The position numbers were made by a program, and so were the translations under genes. A DNA stretch of 57,152 nt, counting the filler, from Rhizaria sp. SCN 62-66 (lineage: Eukaryota): assembly GCA_001724265.1 (NCBI GenBank). It is 2 parts of 2 records of this genome, joined end to end, with 100 filler letters (N's around TTAATTAATTAA, not from the genome) between each part and the next. Parts side by side here need not be neighbours in the genome. Positions count along the whole stretch, not along the records: positions 1 to 28,574 come from MEDY01000386.1; positions 28,675 to 57,152 come from MEDY01000387.1. One strand, written 5' to 3'. Positions 7,529 to 49,835 of this stretch are shown piece after piece (positions within the stretch are counted from its first letter, which is position 1; every line of letters starts with the position of its first letter). The notes under the pieces were generated by a model. It was not told where the DNA came from. It did no database searches and was given only the letters and a program-made list of their open reading frames with translations.

Positions 7529-8458
7529 TCACCCAGACAGCGTCAACAGCAGCTCCTGACACGCTTCAGCCTCGGAAGGCTCCAGCAGACCGATAAGCTC
7601 TTGCAGCTGCATCAGCACCGCCGATGTGAAGGCTGGCGTGGCAGTGCTGCCACGCCGCGCCCACTCGGAGACCGTCCGCACGATGCGCATTGCGGGCACA
7701 CGCGTGGCGCGGCTTGTAGTAGAACACTGAAGCACGTTGTGAAAGATGCTCTCTTCATCGCCGGACACGAGGTCTTCAAAGCGTACCCCTTCGCACTGCC
7801 CCTGAAACACGTAGGACAGCATGTTAAGCGCGTGCGTACGTGCCGGCAGGTATCTTAAAGCAGCGGCGAGCTGCGGCACGATCGGCGCGACGACACTGTA
7901 CACCAGCGGCGGCTATACACAGATACATGCTGCCATAGTCTTCGGAAGAACCTGATGCACCGCCGCGCCAACGTCAAGAGCTCCTTCGCCGTAGACCTCG
8001 GCCATGTACCGGCCCAGGTGGGCCACGACGCCGCGCTGGGCCAGCGTGTCGACGGCAGCGCGGCCGGAGCGCGCGATGCTGTCGAGAGTCAGAAGCGTGC
8101 TCACAGCAGTTATGCCTCGGAGCCGGTCACAGAGAAGCCGGTGAGAGAGCTTCTCCGCAATGCCGTGCTCGATCAGCAGGGCGCAGCCGCTGGCTGTGCC
8201 GGCCAGGTTGCTCAGCACCCAGAGCGTCCCATGCCTTAACCCAACGCTGTTCAAGCCAGAGGCCTCCAACAACCGCGCAAGCCAGCCAAGCACGTCGTGT
8301 TCGAGACAGAGCGCCAGGAGAGCCTATGCGGCGACGCCCGTTTGATCCGCGCTAACGGTCCTGAGTTCCTCAATTCCGTTGACAAGTCTGGCGGGCGACA
8401 GCGATGTCAAGTCCACTAGCGCATGGTGAAAATTGTTGTAGGAGAACGGAGAACTCAT
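7529..8458 (-). CDS. Divergent importin-alpha-like ARM-repeat protein (about 309 aa) with two in-frame TAG codons (8324-8326, 7913-7915); may be a pseudogene
   Basis: ORFs 8324-8506, 7913-8293 and 7529-7903 share one frame and are separated only by TAG. ARM-like motifs: HDVLGWLARLL...TLWVLSNLAG...LLIEHGI...LDSIA...QRGVV...PPLVYSVVAPIVPQLAAAL. Protein-like sequence continues in a shifted frame to TAA 7312. Confidence 0.55.
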
Positions 8459-9405
8459 CGAATGAAGTGCAGCGTGCGATACAAGACGGAGGTATAATTC
8501 CAACAAGTCTTGTAATACGCTTCACCAAACGTCCCGTGTTGCGTCACAGACCGTTATTGTGCGCAAACCTGAAGAGATAAGGCGAGGAAAATAAGAAAAC
8601 ATGTGTGAGGGAGAGAGTGGAGGTTCGAATTTAAAGTTTCTAGATTTTTGTCTTAAGTGGAACTTATTGAGAAATTTCTAGCAAATATACATCGTGTAAC
8701 AACATATATTATCGTATGGTAGTAAATTTAGCCCAATGTAGATGGGGAGTGCGCTGTTTGAGCACGAGATATGAACGATTGTGGCGCTTCTTCAACCACA
8801 GGACTAGGCATGACGATTGAACTCGTGAATTCACGGGGAAGATCAACGCCCCAAGAGAAATCAATTTAGTACAACATATAAATCTTTCTGTGAATCGTAT
8901 TTCATGGCTTACATTTACATATACACTTGAAGGCATTCTATGAACTGCATTTCGATAAGGAGCTTGTTCGTTACCTCGATTGTGGTCGGCAAGAACTTTG
9001 AATCATGCCATGTCAATGTGATCGTCAGATCAGCTAGAATAGAAGTATAAACGTGGAAAGTTATTCTTGTATAAAATTGTCTTTTGATATAACTAAGTAA
9101 CATGTACATCTACCCCAATCACTCAAGGTGGCTGCTCTCAGTGTCACATCAGTAACACTCTGCATGAAGCCACAATCTCGAGTGGGAAACATGCCTCAAA
9201 CTTTGTCACCGTCTGTAACGAACTGCGGCAAAGTACTCAAACTCAAGCAATTATCGAACATTCAGAGCCACACGGCATCATAAACCAGAAAAAGAAGCTT
9301 TCGAAGTCATGATAGCGTACACTTTAAGTCACTGCTTCGTTTCAAGTTGTTTCTGTCACTTTGATTTGAGCTTGCTATTGATGATTGCCTTTACGCTTTG
9401 ACGTT

Positions 9406-11442
9406 TCACTGCTCCTGAGCCTTCGCTTCACCACTTTCAGCATCTCCGTCTTCATCTTCGTCTCGGCCGCCCTCATCGTTGTCACTGCCACCGACTTCGT
9501 CGCTTTCGCTCTCTTCCTCGTCTTCGTCGACAGCGTCGCTCAAACCCTCGTTTGCATCCTCACTCGGCCGCTAGCTTCGGCTGTTACTGCGACTTTCATC
9601 TTTGCCTTCGTCGCTCGCAGGACCACTACTCGTGCTCTCGCGAGCCTTCGTGCTGCCTACAGTCTCACTTTCACGGCCGTCATGGTCATCATCATCAGCA
9701 TCGCTCTGAGAGCCTGAGTCAGATCCGGAGTCAGATTGCGAGCCAGAGCCAGAGTCGGAGTAGTCCTCGTCCTCGTCCTCATCCTCATCCTCGTCCTCGT
9801 CCTCGTCGTCTTTATCCGCTCTCTCGCGCGCCGCGGCCTGCTCCTTGAGGATTTTCACCACAACCTCTTTGAGCTCGTTGTCGTTCATCAAAATGAACTC
9901 GATGTGTTTCGGTGTGATCACCGTTCCCACCCCAGCGCCAGCGCCGCTGCCGGACTCCCCGCCGCCGCCGCCGCCGCCGCCAATGTTGCGCCGCGCAACC
10001 TGTCCCGCCAGGTCGAGCACCTCGGTGGCGATGTACTCAAGCACGGCGGCGAGGTAGATAGGCGCCGCGCCGCCGACCTTGCCGCCGTAACGGCCGTTCT
10101 TGAGCGCGCGGTGCGTGTGCGCGATGCTGAAGCCCAGCCCGGCCTGCGACTCGGCCTTCTTGCCCGCCGCAGCGGTCGCCGCGCCGCCGCTGCTGCCGCT
10201 GCCACTGCCGCTCGAAGCGGCGTTTTTGCGGCGAGACGTGCTCGAGTTGTCACTAGAGCTAGAGCTCGATTTAGCGCTTGCGCTGTGAGTATGGTTCATG
10301 TTGTTGTTATTATTCAAGGGGAGGCCAAGAGCAGAGAGCAAGTCGTGCGCGTTTGCTCTGGTGTTGTCGTCGCTGCCACTGGGCACGATGCCCGCTGCTG
10401 CCGCGGCGGCCGCGATCGCGTTGGCCGCGGCAGCTGTCCCTCCGGTCGAGTCCACGCCGCCCACGTCTCCGCCGCCGCTGGCCTCCTTGCGGCTACGCTT
10501 CGCTTTGTGGGCGACACTGCCGTCGCCGGACTTGCTGCTCGGTTTAGAGGACGATTTGGTTCTTGCGGCGTCCTTTGAGCTTGATGCAATGGCGTTTTTG
10601 CTCTGCGTGCTTGATGAGCCCGTCTGCAATGAACGCTTTTTGCGACTGGCTTCGTCGCTCGCAGTAGCGCCCGTGCTTGTGCTGTGCGTTCCAACCAAGG
10701 CCGCCGCAACACCCGCACTGCTCGCCGCGCGACTACCGTGACTGTGCACCGCTGCAGCCGTGCTGTGACCGCGACTCTGACTCTGACTGTGGCCGTGGGC
10801 AGAGGCAGCTGGGGCGCTGGGGCGACCGTGGGTGGCGTACTGTAGCGGGTTACGAGCGAGATACGGGCTCGGCGGCGGCTGCTGTTGCTGCTGCTGGGCG
10901 GGGTAGCCGTGGGCAGCAGCGGGGTACTGTTGGTAGGGAGGGTAGTACTGCTGCTGCTGCTGCGGATACTGATGAGGGGGCATCATGTGCTGCTGATGCT
11001 GCGGGTACTGCTGCTGCTGTGGGGGGTAGTAGTACGGCTGCTGCTGCGGCGGCGGCCCCTGCGGCGGCATCATCTGCTGCCCCTGATGATACTGTTGATG
11101 CTGGTGAGCGTACTGCTGATGCTGCTGCTGATACTGATACTGGTATGCAGGGCCTTGCGGCGGGCCATAGTATTGCGGAACGTACGGGTATCCATGCTGG
11201 GTGTGCGTGCCCGCGCCCGGGTAACTGTGCGCAGCGTGCGGCAGAGCGCCCGCGCCCGGTGCCGGGACGGGCGCGGCGGCATGCGCAGCAGCAGCGACTG
11301 CGGCTGGGGCCGGCGCGGGGTGCGGGCCGCGGGCGTCGTGTGTGGGCGGAACATGGCTGTTGTAGGGCGTAACGCCTGATGCGCCAGGAGGGTATCCACC
11401 TTGGTATCCCATAGAGGGCGTGTGGGGCGGAGGACCTGACAT
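9406..11442 (-). CDS. Histone H2A-fold protein with Q/Y/P prion-like N-terminus and long acidic C-tail; 678 aa if TAG 9571-9573 is sense, 623 aa otherwise
   Basis: AGLGFSIAHTHRALKNGRYGGKVGGAAPIYLAAVLEYIATEVLDLAG...ITPKHIEFILMNDNELK is an H2A core (about 9841-10162). The acidic tail continues past the TAG (RPSEDANEGLSDAVDEDEEESESDE...) to TGA 9406-9408. Confidence 0.85.
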
Positions 11443-11965
11443 AAGACGCGCTGATGTCGGTGGCAGGCTTGGTGAAGTGTCCCTTGGTGTGTGTCGAAAG
11501 GGGCTACTAGGCAGAGGGGTTTTCAGAAGAAGGACGTGAGGTATAGAGTAAATTCAATTGATACAGATTACCTAAGACAATATTGTAAAATATATTCGAG
11601 TAACCCATCATAATGAGCTCATTGATGCCGTGAGAGGCTGCGTTGACGACAGTGCACGATTCGCGAACCACAGATTGCGGTGACCGCGCGAAATCAAGAG
11701 CAGCCAGAATTCCCTTATTTCCCACCAGGATTCCGCGCTAGAATCCGTCACTGTCATTCCTAGCACGAGATTCAAATTTCACCATACAAATCCATCATAA
11801 CACGAAAATTATATGCTTATATCCGACATATTTGATATTCTATTTCAATTTTTGTTTCTTCCTCAGAGCGCGTGTTGCCACCCTAACGGTCACTCTTCAG
11901 CCTCAATCGTCACACTCTGCAATTGCACTCAGTACCACCAGCACTCTTCCGACTGTATTGCCGTG

Positions 11966-14900
11966 ATGCGTCCAACATTTCCCGAGCGCCCCGGCTCCGC
12001 ATCAGTCCATGGGGATCGGTTCGGCGCCCTTCCAGCCCGCGCGCCGCTCTCAGCCCACACAACCACCACCAACAGCAGCAGCAGTAGCTCTACTCGTCCT
12101 GTCTCCGGCTCTACATCGGCGTACGGCGGCGCCGGGCCGCAGCTGCCGCCGTCGTCGCACAATCCCTACCTGACCTCTGGGTCGCTTGGGCTTGCTATCG
12201 CCGGCAACACGATGCGTCCCCAAACCGCGACATCGGCCTCAGGGGCGCCGCCTTCCCGCGCGAGCACGGCGGGCTCGACTGCTGCGGGTTATAGCGTGAG
12301 TTCGAGTGCGAGTGCTGCCCGCCCTAGCGCCCACGTGCAGCCATAGTCACGTCTTCCCTCAGCCTCTGCATCTGTTGCCACCACAAGCAACTCCACAAGC
12401 AACGCCACAAGCAACTTGAGTGGCAGCGGTGCTGGCGGTACTAGCGGTGTCAGCGGGTCTGCAGCGTTCGCGTCCGCTCTGGCCTCTCTTAAAGCGATGG
12501 ACGCCGGCAGCAGTAGCAGTGCGGCCCATGGTGGTGTCGGCGCCGCTGTCGCAAAGTCAAGTCGCCCTCTGTCAAACAACCCTTACATGAACCCGACCTC
12601 GAGCTCGAGACTGTACAACGACAGCACCGCGGTCGGCATGAGGCCCCCCGGCCCCGCTGTTCAACGAAGCACCAGCACCAGGAGCAGCTACAGCGGCTAC
12701 AGCACTGGCGCCGGCGTCGGTGTTGTCGGCACTGGCGCTTTATACCCCGTGTACAAGGGATACGACGATTACGACGTCGACAGTAGCACGAACGCGCATC
12801 ATCATCCTAGCGCCGGAAACAACGGCTCCGGTCTGCCCGCAAGCTCGAGTTCATCGGCAAGCAATCACCACTACGGCGTCGGTGCCTATGGCGCGGAGCC
12901 TGCGGCCGAACCCGAGGCGCCGGGCTACATGAGCGGCGGCGACGACGACGACGGCTTTGTCGGGACGTTTGCCGACGGCGCGGGCGCGTATGCGGGCAGC
13001 GCAGGCGGGTACGACGATGATGATAATGTCGTCGGCGGCGGGGCAAGTAAAAATCCTTACGGGTACGCTTACGACGATGACGCTGGGAATGTTCATAGCA
13101 ACAATTATAATGCTGATGATGGTGAGCAAAACGGGTACATTGATGACGGCGACGATCTAGAGAATAACGGCGATGACGATGAGTTCCCCGTCCACACCGC
13201 CACGCACATGCAGACGCAGCCGCTCGATCCACAACCTCGACACCAGCAACAGTCAGAGCGCGAGGAGCGGCAGTCGCAGCCACTGGCGGCGGGCCTCACT
13301 GTTGCGGACTCATTGTTCCGCACTCGCACGAACAACAAGAGCAAGCAGGGCGGCACTTACACTGGCGACACAGGTGCTTACCCAGAGGACGTGTTGAACA
13401 TGTCGGGGGCGGATATCGCTGCTTCACTTGACTTCATCGATGATGATGACAACGACGACAATCATAACAATGACTACAATGGCAATGCTCACCGCGACCT
13501 GCAAGGTGCTTACAATAGTGATGAAGGGCCTGACGCAGAAGCGACTACTTACATTAAGTCCACATCTAACGGCGTTAGGGGTCCTCACGCTTCCTCTTCT
13601 AGGGTTGCTCAAAACATCAGCTCGCAGTCGCAGTCTGAGGGCGAGGCCTGGCTCCGCGCCGCTGCCTCTGCCATCGGCACCACTTACGACTCCAGCGTGA
13701 ACGCGGCCAATACCGGTACGGGCGCCGCCGGCTCTGGCGCGAACCCCGGTGCCGCGGTGAGCGGCAGCGTCCAGGTGACCGTGAGCAGCTGGCTCTCGCG
13801 CTCCTCGGTGCTGCGCTCGATCGTCATGGCGGCCACCCAGGACGCCGCGGCGGCCGTGGCGCGCGCGTCGTCACGCATCCCCGAGCTCAAGGACGCCGAG
13901 CTCGCACACGTGCAAAGCAACAGCGCCAACAGTGTCAACAGCGTGAACTCTGGCCCTAACACGGGCTCCGGCTCTGGCCCTGGCTCTGGCCCCGGCCCCG
14001 CCTCGGCCCCCCTAGCCCCGGCGCTGGCGGCCGCGGGTGACGCGCTGCCCCGCGTCCGTGCCGTCCTGGCTTCCTCTCTCGCGCACACCGCCGGGCTGGC
14101 CCGCGCCTTTGCGCGGCTGGTGCGGCCCGAGAGCGCGCGCGACGACGACGCTTACGTCGACCTGGTGCAGACGCACCTGGACGCGCTCGAAGACAGCCTC
14201 GAGGACCGTAAGGCCGCGCTCGCTGCCGCGCAAGCCGGCGCCGCCGCCGAGGCTGCAGCGCTAGAGCGGGAGCTCCGCGCGCTGCTGGAGCGCACCGAGC
14301 GCTGGGACGCGCAGGTTGCCTCGGCCGCATCGGCCGCGGCGGCGGCGGCGGCTGCCTCGGCTGCGGCAGCGACGGGCACTGGGCAAGGGCAGCAACAGCA
14401 GCAGCAGAGTCGTGGTGCATCTGCGCTGTATGGCAACAACGACCAGACTGGCGCTGCTGCTAATGCTGATGGCGACACGAGTGCGCTTGACGCAAGCTTT
14501 ACTGACGATCGCAGCGGCAGCTCAGGGGGTGCCAATGGTAGCGCTGGCGGCGGTGGTGATGATGAGGACACCGACCAAGGCGGCCTGACTTCCGTCATGG
14601 CACGCATGCGCGCTCTCATCGACAGCATCGACAACACCGCTAACAGCGCTAGCGGCAATGCCAGTGCCCCTGCGAGTGCGTCAAGCGCGCTCAACTCGAG
14701 CAACCCCGCCATCGCCGCCGCCGCTGCGCACGGCCAAACGGGCGGCTGGAGCAGCGAGGATCACAGCGACTTCCTTCATGCGATTGCGGGCGCGCCGTTC
14801 GCGGCCGCCACCGCTGCCGCCGCCGCTGCCGTGGCCGCGGCGTCGCTGCCGTATGTGCCGCGCTCGGAGCAAAGCGCGGAGAGTCTCAACACGAGCCGAA

Positions 14901-16064
14901 ACCTAAACGAGTCGACTGCAAACGCACGTTCTGCTTCGGACAGCGCTCGCGGTTCCACGCCCGCAGACTCGTCTTCCTTCTCTGTTCTGTTGCACCTGCC
15001 GCCGATCCCCGCCTTCCCCTCCGTGGCCGATCTGCCCCCGCTGTCTTTGTCCGCCTACGGCGCCCCCGCCGCGGCCATCACGGCCCGCGCGCAGCAGCAC
15101 ACGCCGCACCTGTCCCCCGACGCCGTGCGCGCGCACCTGCTCTGGTACCTACACCAGCTGCTGCTCGCGGCGGCCAAGCGCGCCGCCGTCGTGGCCTGGC
15201 GCGCAGCCCGCGCGGCCGTCGCGGACCGCCGCGCGCTGCGGGAGGCCACCGCGGAGGCCGCAGTGACGGCGCAGGCGGCAGCGGTGCGCGCGGCGGCCGA
15301 AGCTGAGCTGGCCAAGAGGAAGAAGGAGCGTGTGGAGCAGTGGCGGCAGAGCAAGGCGGCAGAGGCGGCGCGGGAGACTGCCGCGAAGGAGGCCGCCGAG
15401 GCTGCGGAGGCCAAGAGGAGGAGGGATGCGGCCGAGGCCGAGCGCATTCGGCTCAAGCGCGCCATGGTCACTTTCCAAGTACGTCTTGTGTCGCTTTACT
15501 TCACTGTGTCTTCGTTAAACTGCTCCGAGTTGATCAGAATCACGAGATTATAACCTTCATATTTCAATCGTATCTCATGCCATATTTTCAACATCTATCC
15601 CATATGTTCTCACATTTCACCCACTTTTACGATTCGTTCATTCACAGGAGCAGCGCAGCCTCGACGCCCGCGTGACTGCGACGGAGTCTGCTGCGGTGAC
15701 CGAGGAGGCCGAGGCCGCGCGCCGCCGCGAGCGCCGTGACCAGCTGGCCCAGCTCCGCGCGGCGCAGGAGTCGCGCCTGCAGAGCATCGCGGCCGAGCGC
15801 GAGCAGCGCGCCGCGGCCGCCGCCGAGGCCGCCCGGCGCGCGGAGCGGGCGCGCGTGGCGGCGGCGCACCGGCTGGACGCCGTGGTGGTGCGCGACGCCG
15901 GGCGCCTCACACAGGCGACGACGGCGCAGGCGGCGCGCGAGAAAGCCGCGGCGCGCGAGCGCGAGCGTGCTAAGGAGGCCGGCGACGGCGTGCGTGGCAT
16001 TGCGTACGGCGCCGTCGAGAGCGGGCACAGGGGCGCGGCGGCGTGGCGCGGGAAGATCGGGTGA
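11966..16064 (+). CDS. CCDC112: CCDC112-like coiled-coil (centriolar satellite/cilia) protein, about 1309 aa, exons 11966-15478 and 15648-16064, in-frame TAG at 12344-12346
   Basis: GQTGGWSSEDHSDFL, PHLSPDAVRAHLLWY...KRAAVVAWR, RDAGRLTQAT and C-terminal HRGAAAWRGKIG match recalled CCDC112 motifs (GGWDDYDHQNF, HEKWY, RDPSRLYKPT, HRAIPTWRQG). Intron GTACGT...CAG keeps the frame. Confidence 0.75.
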
Positions 16065-16513
16065 TCTGGGTTGTGCTGTCATGTGCGAGTGCGTTGATGC
16101 ATGCTGAATTTTTCCTGTTCGTGCGCTTACACTTAATGAATGCGCATATGCACCACACATATTTGTTTTCTTATCATGCTTTGCTACATTAGGAATACCT
16201 ACGTAAGGACGAATGGTTAAAAGTCTCGTTTTGTTTTATTAGGTGCTAAGAGAGAACGATTCGAGACAGGTCTCAGTGATTATAGAAAGACATGTTACTA
16301 CTCGTTTTTGTTTGTTTGATTAATATAACAATAAATACACAAAACAAAAGGAGAACACACACACATATACGAACATTAGACACACATAAACTAAAGGCAG
16401 TGCATAACGACGGTTTTGTCATTGGTGAACAGTCGTCGCACTGCCATAAATTAAGAGCTGCACGAACACAGCGTTTGATTGACGAGTGGAGGGATGTCAC
16501 ACCTGTTACTTGC

Positions 16514-19500
16514 TTATGAGAAGAAGTATTTGGACTCGCGGATCTTGTTAAGGTCGAGCGTGCCGCGCTTGGGCACGGGCGGGAACTGCACGTGCGGGAA
16601 GCGGATCGAGAAGGACGTGTGCAGGTCGTCGAGAATGGGCTGCGAGTAGAGCTGGATGAACTGCTCGCGGAGCACCGTGTTCATGGTGTCGACGTCGCAC
16701 GCGTGCGCCCAGAACGAATCGTGCACGGACGAGAAGTTGAGTCCCTTCTTCTCGCACTCGATGGCCGTGGTCATCATGTGCGTCGCGTCGAGCGAGTGCA
16801 CGAAGTTGGGCGGGAACGCCGCCTTCTGCCGCGTCACCGACACCGGCAGCGAGTCGTTGTTGTCCGTCATGGTCACGTTCTGCATCAGCGTCCTGATCGT
16901 GTAGGCCGAATTCTTGCGGTACGGCTGCGTCACGGGCAGCCCCAGCGGCGTGACCCAGCTCACGGGCTGCTGCTCGCGCGCCATGAGGCTCGCGCACTCG
17001 CCCAGCCATCCCATGATGGACTTGGCGCCAGTGAAGACGGTCGACAGCGAGTTGAGCGTGAGGCGCGCGATGTACATCGACGCCTGGTACAGCGCGCGCT
17101 CCTTGGGGTCGGGCCAGTTGATCTCGCGCAGGTCGACGAGCTGGCGCATCACCTGCTCGCGCGCGCCGACGAACGTCACGCCGTAGACAGAGGTCATGAC
17201 CGTCTGCTTGACGACCTTGCGCGTGATGTGCGGCAGCAGCAGCTCCGCCAGCGGGTGGCCGTTGGCGCGGTCCTCATCCATGAGGACCTTGACCTGGGCA
17301 AGAACGTGTGAGTATACGTCCTGCGGCTTGTCGGCGGGCATCAGGTTCACGCGCGCACCGCCGAGCTCGTCGCGGCCCAGCGCGGCGTAGTGCTGCAGGC
17401 CGTTGCACGAACCGTCCTGGATATGGACGAAATAATGAGAAACATATAGAAGAGTGAGTTAACACGTTAGATAGACAAGAAAAAGCACATGAAGACATAC
17501 GTAGACGAAGATTGATCAAATTATTTTCTTCAAACTCCGATTATATTCGAGTGCAGTGGTTCGTACCTGGTGAACAGGGAGCGAGCAGCAGTACTCGGCC
17601 GGGTTGGGGCTGCGGACCGCGGCGGCAATCTCGAAGCACGTGGCGAGCGCCTGCCACGGTGAGTCGGCCGTCATCCACCACGGGATGAACTCCGAGTGCT
17701 CCTGGGGCGGGTCCAGCTCGCCGCGGGTCTTGCCGAAACGCGGGTTCGGCATCGACGCGAACAGCGGGTCGTCGGCAGCCTGTGCGGAATGTGAAAACGA
17801 AGAGAAAAATATGACATACAGTGAGATGCAAGATGTGATACGTGATGATTAGGACATTTAGAGATCCGACAACATCAGGATTTGAGAACAAGGAGAGACG
17901 TTGTACTGATCGTTCGTTATGCGACGAACCTGAAGGATTTTGTCGAGGTGCGACTTGGCGTACGCGACACGGTCATCGAACGAGATCTTGTCCACGCCGA
18001 ACTGCGCAGCCAAGTGCGCGTAGAGCCAGTAGAGCCCGCGCTCGCCGAGCGGGCGCTTCTCAGAGAACATGAGGATGCCACGAGACATGTCGGAACCCAG
18101 GTGGTTCAAGTGGGGCGGTAACGGGTACGCGCGGCCGCGGAAGTCCATGTTACAGGGGAAGTAGAGCTCGTAGTCCATCAGGGCGTCGGCCTGGTTAAGC
18201 TTGAGAATGACGTCGCACCGCAGCGAGTGCAGGTCCATGTTAGCCTAGGAACAAAAAAGGAATGAAAACAGAGTGGAGTGAGGAAAATGAGCATGTGAAA
18301 AAGATTTACACGTGTTTCAAAACAAAGTAAACAATTTAAATGCGTGTCCAAAATAAAAGCAACACGTTAGTGAAGGGGAATACTTCAGCTTTGAATACTT
18401 CAGCTTCATGTTTGTTTTGCTTCCGATTGCGACGCACCTGTGTGAGTTTCTGGATAAGCTTGTTGTGCTTGCGCATCTCCCGGTTGTACGCGCGCTGCAC
18501 GCGCTCGTTCTCCTCGGCCGTGTTCATCTCGTCCAGCACGGGCGCCGCCAGCGGCAGCGGGAGCGGAATGTCGACGCGACCCGGCAGGTCGGCGACGCCG
18601 CCGCCCTTCTCCCAAAAGGCCTTGACAACGTCGATGACCTGCTTGTTGACGCGCCAGGGCACGCGGCCCAGCACGTCGAGCGACTCGAACGCCGCGGGCA
18701 TGTCGGCGTAGAAGACCGCCTGCAGCTGCTTCGCGGAGCCCTTTGCGCGGATGGCCGTGTTCTGCACCGTGATGTACCCGCCCGCCTTGGGGCTGGACCA
18801 CGGCCGCGGGGGCACGACCATGGGCATGAGCTTGGGCCCCAGCCCGGCAATGAAGGCGTGGCCCTCCTCAATCATCGTCAGCACGTCGCGGTGGCAGCGG
18901 ATGACGCCGATGTAGTGTCCCTTCTTGACCGGCACGTACTCATGCAGAAACGCGAGCTCTTCCTGCGGGACGATGGACGTCGCGGGCCCGCTCTCGGCGT
19001 GATACTGCACCTTGTCCGCGATCGCCTGCGCCGCGAGCTCGGCCGCCACGACCGCGAGCTGCGCGTTGCCGGGCTTGTCGTTGATCTCAAGCGCGGTGCT
19101 GCTCGCGGCCGCATTCGTCGCAGCCAGCCCGTTGGAGGAGTCGGCAGAGGCAGCGCCGCTCACGAGCGCGGTGTGCTGCATGTTCTCGACATACTTGCGC
19201 GCGGCGCGGTCGATGGGCGACATGTTGTTGTCGAGCAGCAGCGCCGCCATCGTGGGCGCCACCTCCTTCATGTTGTTGTGCGCGGCCGCCTTGCCCTTTT
19301 TCTGGTTGTCCATCCGGATCGTGACCGTGTTCATCATGATCTTGAGCAAGCACGCGCCGACCTGCGCGCGCACCTGGTCTGACCACACCGAGTTGGACAT
19401 GAACTTGCGCGCCTTGATCATCACGCTGTCGGTCGTGCGCTGCCCCATCGGCAGCTGGCGGCGCAGCTCATCGTACGCCTCCTTGTTGCCCTTGATGAAC

Positions 19501-21149
19501 TGCATGTTGACCTCCGCGTTGACGGCGCGGCCGACCGCGACGGCGGCCTCGATGAACCGCACGCCGCCGGGCGACACGAGCAGGCGGTTAAGCAGCTCGT
19601 GCATCACCACACACGCCAGCTCCGACGCGCCAAGCGCCTGGATGTAGGGCCCGTAGACCTTGCGGCCCTCGCCGACGACCTTGTTCTCGACCAGCGCCTG
19701 CTCGTGCTGAATCGCGCGCGAGAGCGGCTCGAACCACGCCATGACAAACTGCTGTGCGGGCTTCAGCGAGGAGCCGCGGCCCATGCGGCTAAGCTCCTGC
19801 GACAGCTCGCGGTACTTAAGCACGGCGGCCGACACGGCGAGCGTCTCGTTGATCAGCTGCTGCTCGAATAGCCTCGGCTCCGGGTGCGTGCCCGTCTCGA
19901 TGGCGTACTGGCGGTACTCGCGAGCGATCTGCTCCTTGGTAAACATGGACCGCAGCAGCTCGTCCTTGTACTCGAGCTTGGCCATCACGGCCGCAGACTC
20001 GCGCTGTGCAGTGTCGATGACGGTGTCGATGTGCCGGATCGCCGCGTCGGCCGCCGCGAGCAAGTACGGCGTGCTCGTGAAGTCCACGTGCTCGCTCTTG
20101 CCCGTAAAGTGCACCAGCGCGGCGTCGATCTCGGTGTGCAGCGTGCGTTCGTCGAGCCGCACGACCTGGAACGGCGGCGGCGTGCCCGGCGCCAGGGCAA
20201 CCGAGTCATACCCACGTTGGCGGGCCGCCTCGATGGCGGTCTCGCTCGCGCCCTCAGGCAGCTCCGCCACGGCCTTGTCGGCGGCGGCGATGGCGTAGGC
20301 CGCGGCCTCCGAGCGGCGGCCCAGGTGCAGCAGCACGTGCATGGCGACGGCCGAACGGACCGCGCTGTCGATGGCGAAGGCCGACGACTGGTCGGCGACG
20401 TCCTTGGTGAGGATGAGCGCGGACCGCGCCGAGTAGAGGCTCGCCAGCGTGGGCTTGTCGCGCGGCGGAACAACGAGCGTCTGCAGTTCGTCGACGACCT
20501 GCGCGATCTCGAGCGCGGTGCGGCGGTCCAGCAGGTCCACCTCAGCCGACGCCTCCTCAGCGGTAGCCGCGGGCGGCGAGATGAGCGAATCCATAACGCC
20601 CGCCGGCTGCTGCGCCACCAGCTGCTCCGCGAACGCGGTCGCGTCCTGCATCCGCGAGTACGGCGTCGAGTTGGCGTCGCCGTCGCCGCCGCTGCCGCTG
20701 TTGTTGCCGCCTACATCCGCGCTGTCGTCGCCATTGCCTTCAGCAGCGGCGGCAGAGGAAGAAGAAAATGAGTCGTCGAGGTGCGGAAAGGAGTCGGTCG
20801 GGGGCAGGTTGTTGACGTAGTCGGAGTTCAGCGCGGGGCCAGAGAACGCACGCGCAGCGCCCTGCGTAGCCACACTATGAGTAGCAGTGCGACTGCTGAT
20901 GCTGTTGTTCTTAGGTATGGAGCCGAGAGCACTATTAGTGGCGGCATTGCTGTTGCTGTGACTGCAGCTGCTGCTGCTAATGAATACAGCGGAAACGGAC
21001 TGGAACGCGCGCGGGGCGGACGACGCAACTGAAGCTGCGACCGTGTTTGCAGTAGCAGCGGCAGTTGCGCTCGCGGTCGTGGCCGCAGTCGAGGCCGTTG
21101 CAAGGCTGTGTGCAAGGGCGCGACGACACGCGCGACTGAGGATACTCAT
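16514..21149 (-). CDS. POLRMT: T7/T3-phage-type single-subunit mitochondrial RNA polymerase, 1380 aa, exons 21149-18438, 18244-17930, 17779-17567, 17416-16514
   Basis: MPMVVPPRPW, NMDFRGRAYP, PVHQDGSCNGLQHY (motif A), RKVVKQTVMTSVYG (motif B), FPPNFVHSLDA, VHDSFW (motif C), C-terminal YFFS. The N-terminus is R/A/S-rich, like a mitochondrial targeting peptide. Confidence 0.97.
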
Positions 21150-22156
21150 GCTGCTGTTGTGGAGAGTGCTGCCAGAGACGCAACAGTGTAGAGATGAGAG
21201 TGAGGACGCGAGTGCGGGTGCGACAGCTGCTGCGGCTGCGGCGGCTACAGAGGTGGGGGCTGCTGCGGCGACGGCGGAGAGCGGGAAGCCAAAGCAAGCG
21301 CGGGACAGCTACAATCAAAATAGAAACTAGAAAACGTGCCCTAAAACAGGCGCGGTGTGCTGTGGCGATCAAGTGAAAGGGGGGATATCAGGAGACGTGA
21401 GTTTAGGGGCGAGACAGAACCCACAGTAAGTGGGCGTGAGAGCGTGGGGCAGAGGCTCTGTCGCCATAGAGAGACCGTCTATAGTGATATCAACAAAGGA
21501 GCATATATAAAACAGACGATTCTTCAATAAAGATATAAAAATATGACACTCTGGCACGGTATACACTTGCAATGCAAGTCATGTGCGAGGCCGGACTTGG
21601 GCTTCGGTCTCAGTCGGAGTCTCCGCCATTTTTCGGTCCGTCAGTCGAGGGTCCGACAAGTTGTGCTTTGGCAGCAGATAGCAGCATGAAGACATTTACA
21701 TGTTGAACAAAAAGAAGTTTTGCCAACGGGCTTAAGATATGTAAGTGTATTTTTCACGTTTTACACGCGAGGTCAGCAGTCCACACGCCAAACAGTCAGC
21801 GAGGGACGCGTGAGCACATACGCAGTACAAGCAGGATACAGACTAGACAAGACAGGAAAGACGAGAAGAAAAGATAAAAAGAAAAGAAAGATTCTACTAT
21901 GGGTAACATTGGACCTTACAATACATCACATTGCTTTCGTTTGTTTGGCTGCATCATGCTTGGTGACCAAGCGCAAACACAAGTACGCTAAGTAAGAGTC
22001 GCTGATATTTTTGCTGATATTTTTGTTATGTTTTTTTTTGCGGTGGCGACCACGCGCGCTAGCTGATATCCTCATCACTAATTACACGTGTTTACGGAAG
22101 AGATATGGCCGTCTAGCTCGCGGTGTTTTGCTCTCACCGCGCTTAGTCGTCGTCGC

Positions 22157-23211
22157 TTAGTCGAAGCCGGGGCCGATGTGCGAGCGGTCGAGGAACTCCT
22201 TGATGCCGCCCTTGAGGCCGTATTGGGGCTTCACAGCCGGCGCAGAGCCGGAGCCGAAGACCTGAGCCGTCGTCTTGAGCGGGCCCTGGCGGCGCGCGTT
22301 GACGCTGTTGTTCTTGACGCGGTGCACGCAGTAGAAAGTGTCCTTGCTGCATTTGTTGCAGAACTGGGTCGTGCCCTGCGGGGTGCGGCCGATGTCATAC
22401 AGCGACGGAACCTTGGTCTGGAACAGGTGCGGCGCCTCCAGGTTGCGCTGGTACTGCTCCTCGAGCTCTTCGATCACGTCGCGGCGGTCCGTGAGCGAGT
22501 TGAGCGGGTCACTGGCCTCGCTGTTGCCCTCGTAGGTGCCGTCGCCGCCGGCGGCCGCGGCGCGGATGCGGGCGGCGCGCTCGGCGTGCAGCTTGCTGTA
22601 CTCGCGCTCCTTGTGGAGCAGCTCCTTCCACTGAGACGTGCGCAGCGTGTGCGTGAACTCCGCGCGGCGGTTGGCGTCGGAGGAGCCGAAACCGGTGAGG
22701 CGCTGGCGCTGTGTATGTGACAATGGGGGTTGCAACATAGTCAGGTGTGTAATGAGATGTGAGGACAACAAATTGAGCTTGTGTGGAGAGATCATAATAT
22801 AAATTGCGAAAATTCCATATAGTGGCTAGCTGTGGCTTCAAAGAAAACATGATTAATCTCGATTTAAGTTATATAAGCAGCTCAGCGCCATCGTGTAATG
22901 TGATAACTGTACGTTCAAGCGTCATGACGCCTCGGATTGAAGTGATGATAGAAGGAATAAGGTGGGCTTTGTTAGTAATATAAACGTACGTTCTGGTTGA
23001 ACTTGATCGCAGCGTCAGAGAAGGGCTCGGGGGCGTAGGTCATCTTGGTGAAGTAACCCTCAGTCTGGCCCTCCTTGGGGATGGTGGTTTGGAACTGCTT
23101 GCCCTCGTAGCGGTACTCGCCGCGCTTCTCCTTGGGGATCTTCTTGTCGTAGGGGTCACCGATCGTGAGGTACGATTCGGCCGCCTTGGGATGCTTCGTT
23201 GATTGCATCAT
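22157..23211 (-). CDS. Probable flagellar protein with a CFAP96/UPF0602-like N-terminus, 257 aa, exons 23211-22990 and 22708-22157
   Basis: Strong GC3 bias and a clean phase-0 intron. YLTIGDPY...GKQF.T..PK....GYF resembles the recalled CFAP96 N-terminus, followed by GFGSSDANRRAEF and a C-x2-C-x6-C-x-H cluster. The gene is solid; the family call is tentative. Confidence 0.6.
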
Positions 23212-23791: not shown

Positions 23792-25513
23792 ATGGCGAGC
23801 TACGTCCTCACGTACCTGCTGTGGCTCTTCGGCGGCTTCTGTGGGCTGCACCACATCTACCTGGGCCGCACCTCGCACGCCTTTCTCTACGCCGCCACCT
23901 TCGGCTGCCTCGGCTTCGGCTGGCTCCACGACCTCTGGCGCATTCCACAGTACGTGCGCCAGGCCAACTCGGAGCCGCACTACATCGAAGACATGAAGGT
24001 CCGTGCCCGCAATCGCCCCAACACGTCCCTCGCGCGCGCCACGACGATGTTCTTCGTCGGCTCCGTCTTCAGCCGCGTCGCGCTGGCGCCCGTCGGCTGG
24101 CTCGAGCCACTGCCATCCCTGCTCTCCCCACTTGCCAGCGCCTACCTGGGCTCGCTGTCCCCGCTTTTCACGCCCCCCGCGGCCGCCTCGGCTCCCGGCG
24201 CGTTCCCCGCCGGCCCCATCCCCCTCTGGTGGCCGCTGCTGACATCGCTCGTGTCCGCGCTCGGCGCCGGCGTCGGGGTGCTCACGGTCGGCTCCGTCGG
24301 CGGCCAGCGCACCGTGAACCGCTACTACGTGCTGCTCGCCGCCGTTGTCGGCTCTGTCGTTGACGCCGTCGTCGTCGCCATGGGCGGCTCAGACGCCAGC
24401 GACCTCTCGAGCGAGATGCAGGCGCTCCGACTCATTTTCCCTATCGTCGTGTGGGCCCGGTCCTGCGAATGGGTGCCCACGATCCTCCACAGGCACGCCG
24501 TCGCCGCGCTTGCCAGCAACAGCGTACCCGCCGCCGCCGCGCTGAGCCCCAGCATCAACAGTAGCGACAGCGGCAGCAGCAACAGCGACGCGTCGGGCGT
24601 GACTGCTGCTGCCGCGGGCGGTGCTCAGTCGCTCAACGCGCCGCTGCTCTCTGCCTCATCAAGCGGCGCTTCGGACGATGATAACGTGTCCAGCTCGAGC
24701 TCGAGCGCTCTTGACGGCGGAGGCTCTGCAGGCCAGCGCCGCTGCGATTTCCCCCGTCGCCTCTTCACTGTGATTCTGTCCGTGACGGCGTTCTGGGGCA
24801 TGTGCGGCCTCTACGTGTATCATTACGTGCCCATTCCGACCGACTCGGACACACAGTACGCCGCGGCCTCAGCCGAGTACGCCCAAAGTAACGCCCCGGG
24901 GGCCGGCGGCAGCGCGGCGCCCGAGTACTACAATCACGACAACGCTCAGCAACAGCAGAAGCAGCAACATCAGCAGCAGAAGGCGAAGACCACGCCGCCG
25001 CAGCCTGACGACAAGGACGAGGAGTTCTACGACTACTTCGGCTTCGACTATAACACGCGCAACGCGCGCACAGCCCCGATGCGCGTCAAGGACGTGCTGA
25101 TCCGGATTCGCCGCTCGCGCTTCTGGTCCGACGCGGCCACCTACATCCCGCAAATCCTTTACACCGTGCATCGTGACGGGTTCGGCCGCGCCTGGGACGA
25201 CCTGGTGGGCACCATGGATCTCAACGGCGGCGAGTGGGCATTTAACGTGCTCGGGCTGGAGGAGGCCTCGGCGACGCGCCGCAGTGCGCGCAAGCGGCGC
25301 GGTGAGCTGGCGCTCAAGTGGCACCCGGACAAGAACCCGGCCGAGCGCAAGAAGGAGTGCGAGGAGAAGATCAACGAAATCAACGAAGCGTACAAGATTG
25401 TCGAGGAGGTGCTCAGCAAGAGGGAGGCCTCCGGTGCCGGTGCTGCTGCTGGCGCTGACGCTGGCGCGGCGGGTGCTGGCCGCGCGAGCCGCAGGAACAA
25501 GGACGAGTTGTGA
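23792..25513 (+). CDS. DNAJC22: DNAJC22/Wurst-like TM2-domain, multi-TM J-domain protein, 573 aa
   Basis: N-terminal TM2 motif TYLLWLFGGFCGLHHIYLGR...GWLHDLWRIPQYVRQAN, hydrophobic helices, and C-terminal J-domain AFNVLGL...LALKWHPDKN...EINEAY. Confidence 0.88.
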   Translation: MASYVLTYLLWLFGGFCGLHHIYLGRTSHAFLYAATFGCLGFGWLHDLWRIPQYVRQANSEPHYIEDMKVRARNRPNTSLARATTMFFVGSVFSRVALAPVGWLEPLPSLLSPLASAYLGSLSPLFTPPAAASAPGAFPAGPIPLWWPLLTSLVSALGAGVGVLTVGSVGGQRTVNRYYVLLAAVVGSVVDAVVVAMGGSDASDLSSEMQALRLIFPIVVWARSCEWVPTILHRHAVAALASNSVPAAAALSPSINSSDSGSSNSDASGVTAAAAGGAQSLNAPLLSASSSGASDDDNVSSSSSSALDGGGSAGQRRCDFPRRLFTVILSVTAFWGMCGLYVYHYVPIPTDSDTQYAAASAEYAQSNAPGAGGSAAPEYYNHDNAQQQQKQQHQQQKAKTTPPQPDDKDEEFYDYFGFDYNTRNARTAPMRVKDVLIRIRRSRFWSDAATYIPQILYTVHRDGFGRAWDDLVGTMDLNGGEWAFNVLGLEEASATRRSARKRRGELALKWHPDKNPAERKKECEEKINEINEAYKIVEEVLSKREASGAGAAAGADAGAAGAGRASRRNKDEL

Positions 25514-28574: not shown

Positions 28575-28674
28575 NNNNNNNNNNNNNNNNNNNNNNNNNN
28601 NNNNNNNNNNNNNNNNNNTTAATTAATTAANNNNNNNNNNNNNNNNNNNNNNNNNNNNNNNNNNNNNNNNNNNN
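28575..28674. other. Artificial contig-joining linker (44 N + TTAATTAATTAA + 44 N)
   Basis: Exactly 100 nt with a palindromic 12-mer that places stops in all six frames. Genes on either side are cut off. Confidence 0.95.
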
Positions 28675-29200
28675 GTCATACTGGCGCAGCCGAGCGCGAT
28701 ATGACTTGATGACGGTGAGATCGAGTGGCTGGAGCAGGGACGTCCCGTGGGCAGGGACGTAAAGTAGCGTCACATCGTTGTGATAACACCACTTGCGGAA
28801 CGACGTCATAATGTGGCTACGAGCAGAGTTGCAGATAAGCACCATGGTGCAATTCTTGTAGCGACCCACAAGCGTTGTGTCGCGTAGGCTCAGTGAAGGT
28901 CTCGCCGGTCGACATTGCGCTGCTATTCACCTGAACGATCGCGTTGGACGGAGGGTTCATGCATTCCGTCTTGTTATAGTTTGAAAATGCAGTGGTGAGC
29001 TTTTTGTACACGGTGTCCATGTCTGTTTGACGCTCGTAGTACTTGAGCCCCGCGTCAATGGCCTTCTTCACCACTGTGCCGAGAGCCTTCTTCACGGCCT
29101 TCGTCGCGTCCGTCAGAGTCTCTGGCTTAGCAGCACGCGCGGCTTCGGCCGCGGCCGCGGGCGCAGGAAGAACAAGATCCCACGCGTAACATGTTTGCTA
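28675..29200 (-). mobile_element. Degraded pogo/Tigger-like (Tc1/mariner superfamily, DDE_1) transposase remnant, truncated by the gap
   Basis: VNSSAMSTGETF (compare N.KAWMT.E.F), then after a frameshift near 28870-28890 MVLICNSARSH...TLLYVPAHGTSLLQPLDLTVIKSYRARLR (compare L.LDN...H...LPPNTTS.LQPLD.GVI..FK). Confidence 0.75.
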
Positions 29201-40430: not shown

Positions 40431-40504
40431 GCCCCATTAGCTCAGTTGGTAGCAGCGTACGACTTTTAATCGTGATGTCACGGGTTCGACCCCCGTATGA
40501 GGCA
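40431..40504 (+). tRNA. tRNA-Lys(UUU), slightly atypical
   Basis: Cloverleaf: acceptor GCCCCAT/ATGAGGC (one C.A mismatch), A-box TAGCTCAGTTGG, anticodon stem TACGA/TCGTG with loop CTTTTAA (TTT at 40465-40467), T-arm ACGGG-TTCGACC-CCCGT. Confidence 0.9.
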
Positions 40505-41360: not shown

Positions 41361-42078
41361 ATGTCGTCCAACAAGCGTCCTGAGTTTGAGACCAACTTCC
41401 AGGTTCGTATCCCCTTGCTCTTCCCGCTCTTACATCATACCGATACCAGGCTCACCGATGTCATGCTTTAACAAAACGATAATAACTCACTCTTCTATCC
41501 TTGCCCTGCGCCTCTTTTATTCTTCGTTGTAACCAGGTGACCAAGAGCATTACCACCCAGCAGAGTCTGGACATCATCAGCGACGCCGCCGAGAAGGGCG
41601 TCATCGAGATCACCGACGACCCGCGCGTACGTGCACTTAGACTTCACGAAGTGACTCATTTAACACATGACTTTTCATTCAACACTTCACAAAATACGTT
41701 TGGATCTTTCTATTTTCCTTTGCGCATCATGTTTCCCGTTTTTTTTTCTTCTTTCTTCACTCCTCTTTTCACATCTCTCACGCTCTCAATGCTTTCACGC
41801 TTTCTCATTGACTCGCCCCACTGCAGAAGCTGAGCAACGGCATCTACCGCCCCGCACGCAACATGCCCGCCAACGTGGCCCCCACGGCGCCCCCTGTGCC
41901 GCAGCCGGCCGGCTCTGCCGCCGCGTCCGCGCCCGCCCCGTCGGCCTTCCAGGTCGCGGGCGTGCTGCAGGCGCGCGACAAGGACGCCGCGCCGCCGGGC
42001 GCCAACAAGGGCCTTGAGATGTTCCAGCGCATGCAGCAGCAGAACGCCAAGAAGCCCATGGTCGACATCACCAAGTAA
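41361..42078 (+). CDS. Hypothetical 127-aa protein, exons 41361-41402, 41537-41626, 41827-42078
   Basis: Two phase-0 GTNCGT...CAG introns give MSSNKRPEFETNFQVTKSITTQQSLDIISDAAEKGVIEITDDPRKLSNGIYRPARNMP...KKPMVDITK. Strong GC3 codon bias; no family recognised. Confidence 0.75.
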
Positions 42079-43849
42079 GCCGGTCAGCGAGCGTGCGGTG
42101 AGCAACAACAAACCAACAACAACATGCGCAGAGCGGGTGATTTTGTGGTTGATTTCATTGGACTCATACTATGTGGCTGGTGTCTTTCTAGGTTCGGAAC
42201 GAGTTGTGCCGTGTTTCTACTTCTACTGTCTGTGACAGCTGTTGATGGACAGCAACAGAGCCGCAACATTGGTTGCTGTTGAAGTCGTAAGGTCGCACTC
42301 AATCCATGTACAGCTTGTCGTGTGTAAGTGCACACGTAATACAAAAGTAACATTTTGACCTACAACCGACGACTTTTTGAACGGAAATCTTCAAGCATGT
42401 ACAGCAAGAGTCGCACATGTAAGCATTTGTTACAATTTAAGTGCTTTGTGAAGATAATCGCGTATATACAGGTGCGTTTATAATACCATTTTTCGGTCCC
42501 TCCAGCGGCTTATCTTTCTTTGCGGCTGGTTGGTGCGCATAGTGATCAGCAGGATTCGATTGGAGCTTATCTTCACACAAAGCTTTTGAGCTTTTGACAG
42601 GCGATAATAGAATGCTGCTGGTCCACTTAGCTTGAGCAGTGGGTTCTGTTTCTTGTTTTATTTTTCACACTTCCGCGCAGCGCGTGTAAGTGTGTCTAAT
42701 CCGGCCAGGTACGTACTTGGGCTTCCCAGAGCTTATACAATCACATCTTTTGAACGTCTTCTCGATCAGAGCCATCAATAACGGTTGATCAAGGGACATT
42801 CACGCACGTCCAGCCCATTGCCCGACCTTCCATGACGGGGGATGACTATATTTTTTCAGTGCAACAGTATTGGAGGCGAGATGAAGTGTTCGCTACCTCG
42901 ATAATGGGTAGGGTACCACCGGTCTTTTCTTACATTCTTCCACAATCCACATCACCTCTCTTCTTGTTGAGGGATTTATCACTTGTCACCAGCCTCTCTG
43001 CTTTTATTTTGTTCAGCTCACTCACTTTTCAATCTTCTGTTTCGCACTTTTTACAGGTTCCTCTCCTGTGATCCTCCACTCCTTGTCGGATACGACTTTC
43101 TTTGCGTCTCACCCGCAAGTCTTCGATGTGAGACTTACAAGTCGAGAGCGTGACTGGATCCACTTGCTTGTGATTGTGCTATGCTCTGGCCACTGCGCTG
43201 TGCTAGCATTGTTACGTCCGCAGTGAGACGTTGAAAGTTGTTTCTTGTCTTCACAAGTTCAAACCAATTTTGTTTTTGGTACTGAACAATATTGCTCCGA
43301 GACTAAGTTTAATACACAAAGACACATTCACTTCATCCAACCATCTTCATTTCACGACGCCATATACGAGTATGATCGCTTGAAAACAAGGTCATCTTAA
43401 ATCATGGTAATACTTACTGTTAACGAGTAAGCTTATGGTCTTTCGGGATGAAGTTTTAGTTCTATTTATTCTGACTAGAGCTTCTTGTCATTAAAAGATG
43501 AGCTCAAATATATATACAATATATAGTAATGATAAAAACAAAGAAGAGGAAACAGATATGTACACACAGATTGATAATTGTTTGCGTAATGTCTAAGCTT
43601 TCGCCACTCTCTGCGTCGTGTGATAATGAAGCATCTTCTCCTACATGATGCCAAAGTGACTGACAATACGATTCGAGGAAACGATTTTGTCAGTACTCTC
43701 CATGTAACTACACTTAGATGTACTTCAGACCAGTCAAGACATTAAAAACACACAAACAACGAAATGGACACACACACAAGTACACCTTGAAGTACGCTAA
43801 GACTCAACCAGGGATACATTGACACAAGCATGCAGAGGGGCCTGTACGC

Positions 43850-48498: not shown

Positions 48499-49263
48499 TC
48501 GCGACAGACTCCTTGTGTAAGTGTGGGTTCAGACTACGGAGCCTGCAGACGGGCTCTGAGAGTGGCTGAGGGGAATGGGAGGGTTGGGGGCTAGAAAGGA
48601 GCAGAGGTCAAACCCAGCTAAGAGAAGCAGGCAAGGAGTGGGTCCTGGAAGGGCGGGAGCAAAAGCAAATAGTGAAGACAGGGAATCGTGAGCGATGACG
48701 TCAAAAGTTGCAGACGACCCTGCTTTAAGTGTCTGGACGATTTTACTTTGGGTCCTGTTTACGAGTGGATACGCGGCGCACGCCGAAATGATTAAAATAA
48801 CACACAAGTAAAACAAATCTTCTGGTCATTATCGCGTCATTTTCATGCGTCCACAGCCGTAGTAGGCCAGGATAGACGCTCGTATCTTGCTGACAAAGCG
48901 TCTTTCGCCTGGCCACCCGACCTTGGGCGACCGTGGGCTGGTCACGATGGCGACCGTGAGCAGACCCTTCAGATGCACAATAATTAGTACTTGGACACCA
49001 CAACACTATTTTTATGGGTTACAAATAAGGTAACGCGGTAGCCACGCGGTTGTTTCATCTTATATCTTGCATTCACTTTATCTGACGGATAGTAGTCATG
49101 TTTTTTGGGTGATTTTTTACTCTTGTGGATGAGCCTCACATCTCTGTTTTTTACATTTTTCTTGCCCTACAGCGGTCTATCTTCCTTCTGTGTGGATGAA
49201 AACTTTCCAAACAAAGTAACTAGTAACCACCCGTCTTATAGTCTGAGAAGACCTGTCCACGCA

Positions 49264-49835
49264 ATGGCGTCGTTGCGCCAGAGCCTCTGGGACAACTACC
49301 AGGTTCGTTACAACCCCTCCCTCTCTCTCGTCTTTTGGCTCGTCCCTAGTCCCTTCGCTCACACTTCTTTCTTTCCCGCTTTTCCTACAGGCTCTGGACC
49401 AGGACACTGAAGTCTTGATTGGCGCGTTGCTGCGCGACATCGACGTCCTTACGCGCGGCGACGAGGCGACGTTTCTGTCGTATCAGGGCCCGCTGCGTGA
49501 GTCGCGCAACCGCACGCGGTACCACACCAACCCGCCCATCTCGTGCTACGACGAGCTCAAGCAGTGGCGCACGCTCCGCAAGGACACGCGCGCGCTCGCC
49601 GCCGAGGCAGCACCCGACGCCGCCGCCGCGCCCGCGCGCTGCCCCCGCCACAGCGGCAGCCACAGCAACAGTCTCAAGCAGAAGAGCAATGCTCGTGTTG
49701 CAAGCGTTGATGCGAGTATCATTTCTACTGTTGCGCCCGAGCACGTGCTGATCGGCCCCGCGCGCGCCTAGCAGCCGCCGGCGCTGCCGCAGCAGCTCTC
49801 CGTGTCGTCCACGACTACCGACGCCCCCCTCGACG

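Follow-up and report, generated by a model that had tools for sequence, protein, structure and literature searches.

In a stretch of 57,152 nucleotides from Rhizaria sp. SCN 62-66 (GenBank assembly GCA_001724265.1; hereafter the window), the codon UAG is probably translated, as a rare sense codon of this lineage, with UAA and UGA as terminators. The window consists of two contigs (MEDY01000386.1 and MEDY01000387.1), and the spacer between them (N..TTAATTAATTAA..N at 28575-28674) is artificial. Four genes contain in-frame TAG triplets: an armadillo-repeat gene, a gene for a histone H2A-like protein, a low-complexity gene and a giant gene. The original prediction, made from the sequence of the window, had proposed UAG as a sense codon (likely Gln) with UAA and UGA kept as stops. 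The sense reading and the two stops are supported by homologues, a predicted fold, continuation of coding character, TAGs at related loci and a grouping with the genus Rosculus, and the word 'probable' used for it remains apt; the identity of the amino acid did not find equal support.

Five in-frame TAGs are found at the positions first given (CTA on the plus strand at 7913, 8324 and 9571; TAG at 12344 and 49769), with the 3' neighbours GCT, CCG, CGG, TCA and CAG and without a common context. A sixth in-frame TAG, at 7432-7434 on the minus strand, had not been noted and lies in the frame-shifted continuation of the armadillo-repeat gene; the bases directly following the six TAGs are G, C, C, C, T and C. 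The original prediction had overlooked the corresponding +1 frameshift, in the gene that harbors two of its five TAGs, and had not stressed that genes with a high GC content at third codon positions (GC3) are free of TAG.

Open frames continue across in-frame TAGs

Genes of the window with Pfam or database matches show a clear codon periodicity, and their GC3 is 0.86-0.94. In the other class, made up of low-complexity genes and orphans that lack wider homologues, GC3 is just 0.56-0.74. The spacers separating genes have approximately 35-50% GC, and introns are few and short. As had been noted, the same frame continues past the TAGs: if TAG is read as Gln, open frames are fused at 7529-8521 (minus), 9406-11553 (minus), 11801-15553 (plus) and 49247-56731 (plus). 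The frame following a TAG stays open for 54, 127, 136, more than 1000 and 2319 codons; following 10 TGA or TAA stops, the next in-frame stop is reached 3-36 codons on, the GC content drops to 0.33-0.59 and no periodicity is seen. UAA and UGA still terminate: across 11,875 codons there is no in-frame TAA or TGA, and both GC content and periodicity collapse past these stops.

The strongest case is the armadillo-repeat gene, described here by its homologues and by an AlphaFold2 (AF2) model with its predicted local distance difference test scores (pLDDT):

7532-8458, minus strand: first frame of 309 codons from ATG 8458, by homologues and AF2 model
7315-7530, minus strand: continuation in the +1 frame, by homology, ending at TAA 7312-7314
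8324-8326, minus strand: TAG at codon 45, inside helix 41-53 (block pLDDT 92)
7913-7915, minus strand: TAG at codon 182, in a conserved V-x-PPL motif and in loop 180-186 between confident helices
7432-7434, minus strand: third TAG, past the frameshift, adjoining a conserved L-W

Pfam gave no match for this gene, Arm included, and a word-index search among proteins of near length gave no homologue. An exhaustive search of a library of 1.84 billion proteins retrieved 16 relatives, of which 11 span codon 182 (34-43% identity) and 5 span codon 45. Three of the 16 are fragments of this very protein (residues 1-44, 56-181 and 213-309), broken off at a TAG or close to one. With family members as tblastn queries, the TAG at 7913 is crossed in frame -3 by all 10 queries and the TAG at 8324 is crossed in frame by 4 of the 10; homology in frame -1 (7530-7315) extends across the TAG at 7432 in 3 of the 10. 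Each of the three TAGs faces a single residue of the homologues, without a gap.

Modelled by AF2 with the family alignment, residues 1-309 form a helical solenoid (pLDDT 89.5, predicted template modelling score 0.88) with codons 45 and 182 inside the fold; from the single sequence the model is poor (pLDDT 45.6). Foldseek relates the model to designed armadillo proteins and importin-alpha (template modelling score, TM, 0.63-0.70; probability 1.00), and a structure search of the Atlas with a family member of full length gave armadillo clusters (TM 0.51-0.67). On the model, the product is an armadillo-like fold, a right-handed solenoid of three-helix repeats, and a product ending at codon 45 or 182 could not make the predicted fold. 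The mixed disabling changes by which a pseudogene is recognized are not seen in this gene, as its three internal stops are all TAG and are accompanied by a single shift. The gene differs between strains at 4 positions, too few for a test of constraint. Among the listed contigs of a polyA-RNA run (X5) none lies on the gene, and the depth in bin 7834-8500 is 0; this run is uninformative on its expression.

In the neighbouring H2A-like gene the TAG is followed by sequence of the same kind as before it:

9406-11442, minus strand: H2A-like gene, 678 codons if read through the TAG, ending at TGA 9406-9408
9571-9573, minus strand: in-frame TAG in the acidic tail, with continuing coding character

The 54 codons between the TAG at 9571 and the TGA at 9406 (GC 0.59, purine periodicity 0.89/0.83/0.44) resemble the tail upstream of the TAG; directly past the TGA, the GC content is 0.39 and a stop occurs at codon 5. 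Contigs of the polyA-RNA run X5 cover 10005-11192 of this gene. Pfam gave no match for it, and the core of its product is what we take, by eye from the sequence, to be an H2A-like histone fold, a name as yet unconfirmed. The protein has a Gly-rich insert in this core, which is preceded by a very long N-terminal region rich in Q, P and Y and followed by the acidic tail.

The two remaining genes have their TAGs near the N-terminus, each followed by a long open frame:

11966-16064, plus strand: low-complexity gene, closing at TGA 16062-16064 in what is probably its last exon
12344-12346, plus strand: in-frame TAG, codon 127 of the low-complexity gene, with 126 open codons before and more than 1000 after it
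49264-49302, plus strand: putative exon 1 of the giant gene (MASLRQSLWDNYQ), consisting of ATG and 13 codons in all, followed by GTTCGT
49303-49390, plus strand: putative intron of the giant gene (88 nt, GTTCGT...CTACAG), whose ends resemble those of the RNA-verified intron 22709-22989
49391-56731, plus strand: putative exon 2 of the giant gene, with 2446 codons if read through the TAG, ending at TAA 56729-56731
49769-49771, plus strand: in-frame TAG of the giant gene, in the sequence of the window

At the start of the low-complexity gene (ATG 11966) the GC content climbs from 0.37 to 0.62, and the gene would contain an intron following ...KRAM at GTAACG. The name CCDC112 that had been attached to it was not confirmed, there being no Pfam family. 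In the giant gene, the 126 codons upstream of the TAG have a GC content of 0.67/0.53/0.82 at the three codon positions; 2319 open codons follow, with a GC3 of 0.76-0.88 in the first six 300-nt blocks. An AT-rich spacer, such as lies between other neighbouring genes, does not occur before 56731. Pfam gave nothing for the N-terminus of the giant gene, and its first 126 residues have no homologues among the longer proteins searched.

The triplets are present in other samples

DNA of the organism turns up in bioreactor and wastewater metagenomes: in each of 4 runs, from 3 studies, at least half of the sampled words were present, and the source of the window is possibly among these runs. The comparison with other runs covered five of the six window TAGs (49769 lay outside), and all five were confirmed in DNA contigs from other samples. 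Contigs of run X3, which belongs to another study, are identical across 7402-8897 and 11524-12846. Run X4 represents a slightly different strain: it covers 6841-7571 with 4 differences and no gaps, 7642-9792 with 15 differences, none of the 14 listed falling in a TAG, and 12131-13632 with 1 difference, at 12493, the TAG at 12344 being kept. The frameshift site of the armadillo-repeat gene is free of gaps in the contigs of both runs. A contig of the RNA-labelled run X6 (7814-8046) is unchanged at the TAG at 7913. The same run, although labelled 'probably DNA', holds spliced RNA of the organism, since the intron 22709-22989 (minus strand, 281 nt, GTACGT...ACACAG) is absent from an X6 contig.

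These comparisons bear on the explanation that the TAGs are artefacts or the result of another process: errors or chimeras of the assembly, in-frame introns that remove the TAGs, or editing of UAG in the RNA. The sequence does come from a metagenome assembly, and the genome has introns; nevertheless, we consider this explanation very improbable. Assembly error is excluded for five of the six sites by the matching contigs in X3 and X4, the contigs from other studies being identical or nearly so at these sites. Introns that would remove the armadillo TAGs are ruled out by the gapless alignment of homologues, and introns removing the other TAGs are unlikely, as the surroundings of the TAGs are GC-rich (0.57-0.69) and without intron signals; the RNA-verified intron has a GC content of 0.40 and the putative intron of the giant gene one of 0.52.

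Related loci contain further TAGs

A metagenome scan with an 8-row alignment of the armadillo family gave three loci (L001-L003), all from one metagenome. L001 encodes a family member of 450 residues that ends in TGA. Upstream and in the same frame, the conserved N-terminal motif F-H-x-A-L-A-D-L-x-S-L runs across two TAGs (805 and 889), both of which face a single residue in the homologues. On L002, the strand opposite the armadillo homologue carries a gene with an ADH_N domain, in which a TAG occurs 33 codons past the ATG where GC3-rich sequence starts: the GC content is 0.43 in the 150 nt upstream of this ATG, and the 24 codons between the TAG and the next ATG have a GC3 of 1.0. A further TAG, at L002:2062 and upstream of the called start, was omitted, as there is no in-frame ATG before it. 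The armadillo-family fragment and a second gene on L003 both end in TAA.

Stop codon usage and possible nonsense mutation

None of the 12 accepted gene ends in the window is TAG (TGA 6, TAA 6), as had been noted. The share of TAG among terminators is 20-30% in other GC-rich eukaryotes. Given that share, the probability of finding no TAG among 12 ends is ~0.07 to 0.014. All in-frame stops are TAG (9 of 9; 6 in the window and 3 at the related loci), and TAG makes up 59 of 301 stop triplets in the other frames.

Under the standard code, the TAGs would have to have arisen recently by nonsense mutation, in pseudogenes or in regions that the genes can do without, with the bias toward TAG resulting from a GC3-rich mutation spectrum. 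Indeed, CAG, TGG, GAG, AAG and TAC are each a single step from TAG, and a model of single-step nonsense changes on the codons of these genes already gives an expected TAG share of 0.52-0.67. The TAGs are located in tails, N-terminal regions and variable columns, GC3-rich genes have none, and the armadillo copy of the window is frameshifted, has a short C-terminus and a GC3 of just 0.57-0.74. At the expected shares, however, 9 of 9 stops being TAG has a probability of ~0.006-0.02. The explanation also requires the independent inactivation of four genes in the window and two at the related loci, whereas, the one frameshift aside, there are no other defects in ~6,100 codons, the TAGs are retained in the second strain (X4), a frame of 2319 codons is open past the TAG of the giant gene, and no gene ends in TAG. 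We therefore regard nonsense mutation under the standard code as unlikely.

The residue proposed for UAG

The original prediction had stated that no TAG occupies a strongly conserved column, and this holds: all 5 scorable sites are variable. At codon 45 (TAG at 8324) the aligned residues are K, K, R, Q, A and V; at the four other scorable sites they are D, T, T, W, Y, E, Y, S, K, T, S, T and E; P, I, N, N, G, T, F, I, S, N and G; N, S, S, L, S and D; and G, M, D, K, A, D and D, respectively. When mean BLOSUM62 scores are summed over the 5 sites, S, N, D, T, K, E and Q fall within ~3 half-bits of each other. Gln scores -1.4 and Leu -8.8 half-bits, placing Leu 7.5 below Gln, a crude measure on variable columns. 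In the biased genes CAG accounts for 190 of 200 Gln codons, and TAG is one transition away from it.

Judged from these columns, the residue is most likely polar. The proposed Gln remains our best guess, at little better than even; it does better than Leu in the five-column score, but several other polar residues do equally well or better. Leu itself appears improbable, although the example of exLh keeps it in consideration, and the remainder falls to other residues.

If UAG is translated, it would be either fully reassigned or suppressed with sufficient efficiency for genes to tolerate it, and its use would amount to about one codon in 1000 where the codon bias is weak or the gene is of low complexity, and to none in strongly biased genes. 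A transfer RNA with anticodon CUA would read UAG and not UAA; it could have originated by a single anticodon change from tRNA-Gln(CUG) or tRNA-Leu(CAA), and may be accompanied by an eRF1 that competes poorly at UAG.

Points against sense UAG, and possible ambiguous decoding

Several observations weigh against a sense UAG. The samples are small, comprising 12 gene ends and, beyond the armadillo copy of the window, 5 genes with TAG (window and related loci together), by far too few to speak for gene ends across the genome, and L001-L003 may belong to the same organism or to a relative. Scans for tRNA genes and Rfam families over the window (57 kb) and L001-L003, ~67 kb together, gave just tRNA-Lys(UUU) and no tRNA(CUA), and the window does not contain eRF1. 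As the TAGs face variable columns, no consistent residue can be demonstrated. The only contig from an RNA-labelled run that covers a TAG (X6, 7814-8046) may be DNA.

The armadillo copy of the window contains a +1 frameshift at GGG TGA C (TGA 7529-7531), where the frame changes from -3 to -1 at 7529-7535, and it ends before some of its homologues, which extend ~110-140 residues further; this copy may be decaying, shortened, or dependent on a +1 shift. The shift (7529-7545, minus strand), which falls exactly at a TGA, could be either a mutation or a stop-codon shift of the kind found in antizyme, RF2 and Euplotes. At L002 the armadillo homologue ends in a tandem TAG TGA (3550-3555), which is somewhat likelier if TAG is a stop; opposite this TAG, the L001 homologue has the Q of its A-V-P-Q.

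The distribution of TAG also counts against the proposal, as the 5,450 codons of the GC3-rich genes include no TAG, compared to 6 among the 6,425 of the other genes (Fisher p = 0.034). In Rhizaria sp. exLh and Iotanema spirale, two organisms with a changed UAG, the codon is described as common in conserved genes (PMC5304391), whereas it is absent from GC3-rich genes here. We note, however, that CAA makes up 10 of 200 Gln codons (5%) in the GC3-rich genes and 60 of 266 (23%) in the others; treating TAG as a rare Gln codon with this difference in use, ~1 TAG is expected in the GC3-rich genes. The absence of TAG from these genes fits the general codon bias, which softens the objection.

Some of these observations might instead indicate that UAG is ambiguous, that is, a stop in some genes and read through in others, by context-dependent, programmed or near-cognate decoding. 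Codes with ambiguous stop and sense codons are described in other protists (PMC4967479; 10.1101/2022.04.12.488043), and such a code would accommodate a UAG that is rare and restricted to weakly biased genes, as well as the L002 homologue ending in TAG-TGA; the +1 shift at TGA in the armadillo-repeat gene likewise hints at odd termination. Against it, TAG terminates no gene of the window, the six TAGs have different 3' contexts, and three TAGs within an armadillo protein of 381 codons demand a high efficiency at each of them. We consider ambiguous decoding distinctly unlikely, and a rare but regularly translated UAG remains the probable explanation.

Other features of the window

Two further genes serve as controls without TAG, the first of them also as a taxonomic marker:

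16514-21308, minus strand: mitochondrial RNA polymerase (mtRNAP), with Pfam RPOL_N and RNA_pol and AT-rich introns, ending in TAA
30234-36479, minus strand: four-domain ion channel of 2081 codons, with four Ion_trans stretches and a GC3 of 0.92, ending in TGA

The second contig starts with the remnant of a DDE_1 (pogo/Tigger-type) transposase (28675-29197, minus strand) in two overlapping frames, whose upstream open reading frame ends in TAG. The tRNA-Lys(UUU) gene (40431-40504, plus strand) stands alone in a gene-poor, AT-rich stretch of 6 kb (37.4-43.8 kb). Within the same stretch is a small exon or gene (41812-42078, plus strand) with a GC3 of 0.94, ~70 codons from ATG 41866, a TAA end and no Pfam family. 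An open reading frame of 152 codons that ends in TAG (41710-42168, minus strand) was rejected as a gene, as it is antisense to this exon, although in a list of open reading frames it comes up ahead of the exon. A protein with TM2 and DnaJ domains ends in KDEL (25,499-25,513, plus strand), which suggests retention in the endoplasmic reticulum.

Placement and comparison with known codes

The mtRNAP, whose presence had been predicted, was used to place the organism. A piece of 291 residues has relatives in metagenomes at 63-83% identity; its best named matches are Rosculus sp. ATCC 50888 (58%, over 67% of the piece) and Amorphochlora (57%), followed by a eukprot transcriptome entry 'Norri...' (~55%). 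A scan of genome contigs with this piece gave no relative. A quick maximum-likelihood analysis of 33 rows puts the window and Rosculus within a clade of 9 rows (support of 100 in the Shimodaira-Hasegawa-like approximate likelihood ratio test, SH-aLRT), with the chlorarachniophytes outside. By this single gene, the organism appears to group with Rosculus. This genus is part of Sainouroidea (Cercozoa, Rhizaria), to which the only rhizarian known to have a sense UAG, exLh, also belongs.

Rosculus is counted among the sainouroids by Panek et al. (2017, PMC5304391), who place Rhizaria sp. exLh in the same group. In exLh, as described there, UAG encodes Leu, UAA and UGA are stops, and no UAG terminators were seen; 384 UAG codons were counted in 71 genes, at conserved Leu positions. 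For Iotanema spirale (Fornicata), the same paper describes UAG as Gln, with 204 UAG codons in 126 genes and Gln at 22 of 28 hyperconserved sites. One Rosculus gene is said to end in UAG (PMC5304391), and on that report the change of UAG would not be clade-wide. Our literature search found no later report on the genetic code of sainouroids.

Nuclear codes that split UAG from UAA are described for few lineages, namely exLh, Iotanema and some ciliates (PMC5304391, PMC11687900). The organism studied here would add a member to this known and very small class of codes, and would be more than that if exLh has another residue at UAG. Found again in a free-living relative of Rosculus, a sense UAG would mean either that the change seen in exLh is older and wider, or that UAG changed twice, to different residues, and the low use of the codon would let a reassignment be seen while early or weak, as is rarely possible. 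A more specific version is possible but doubtful: a second, independent capture of UAG within Sainouroidea, at an early stage, with a polar residue (Gln), rare use and maybe a weakened termination that permits a +1 shift at UGA. Were this so, an uncultured wastewater lineage would provide a snapshot of UAG being uncoupled from UAA. In practical terms, eukaryotic bins from wastewater would be mis-annotated, because gene callers cut proteins at UAG, as shown by the three library pieces of the armadillo-repeat gene.

Comparison with other systems can be made at several points. As in Euplotes, a +1 shift located exactly at a stop (GGG TGA C) restores homology in the armadillo-repeat gene (PMC10952039); unlike the shifts described there, this is a lone case in another lineage and with another motif, and may be a plain mutation. 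Phyllopharyngean ciliates, mined from metagenomes, likewise show a reassignment of UAG only, to Leu or Gln, and suppressor tRNAs were predicted for them (McGowan et al. 2024, PMC11687900). As reported, UAG is widespread in these ciliates and UAA is the preferred stop, whereas the window organism uses TGA and TAA equally (6 and 6). The code of Iotanema spirale is similar in that only UAG has become a sense codon, with UAA and UGA as terminators (PMC5304391), and Gln is also the best guess here; Iotanema, however, is an unrelated anaerobe with frequent UAG, whereas the window organism encodes an mtRNAP.

The closest parallel is exLh, in which UAG alone is changed, UAA and UGA are kept and the use of UAG is uneven between gene classes, as far as described (PMC5304391), and which belongs to the same broader group if the placement with Rosculus by mtRNAP holds. 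The differences concern habitat and use: exLh is insect-dwelling, and the window organism comes from bioreactor and wastewater metagenomes; UAG is abundant and found at conserved Leu sites in exLh, whereas here it amounts to 6 of ~11,900 codons of the window and faces polar, variable columns.

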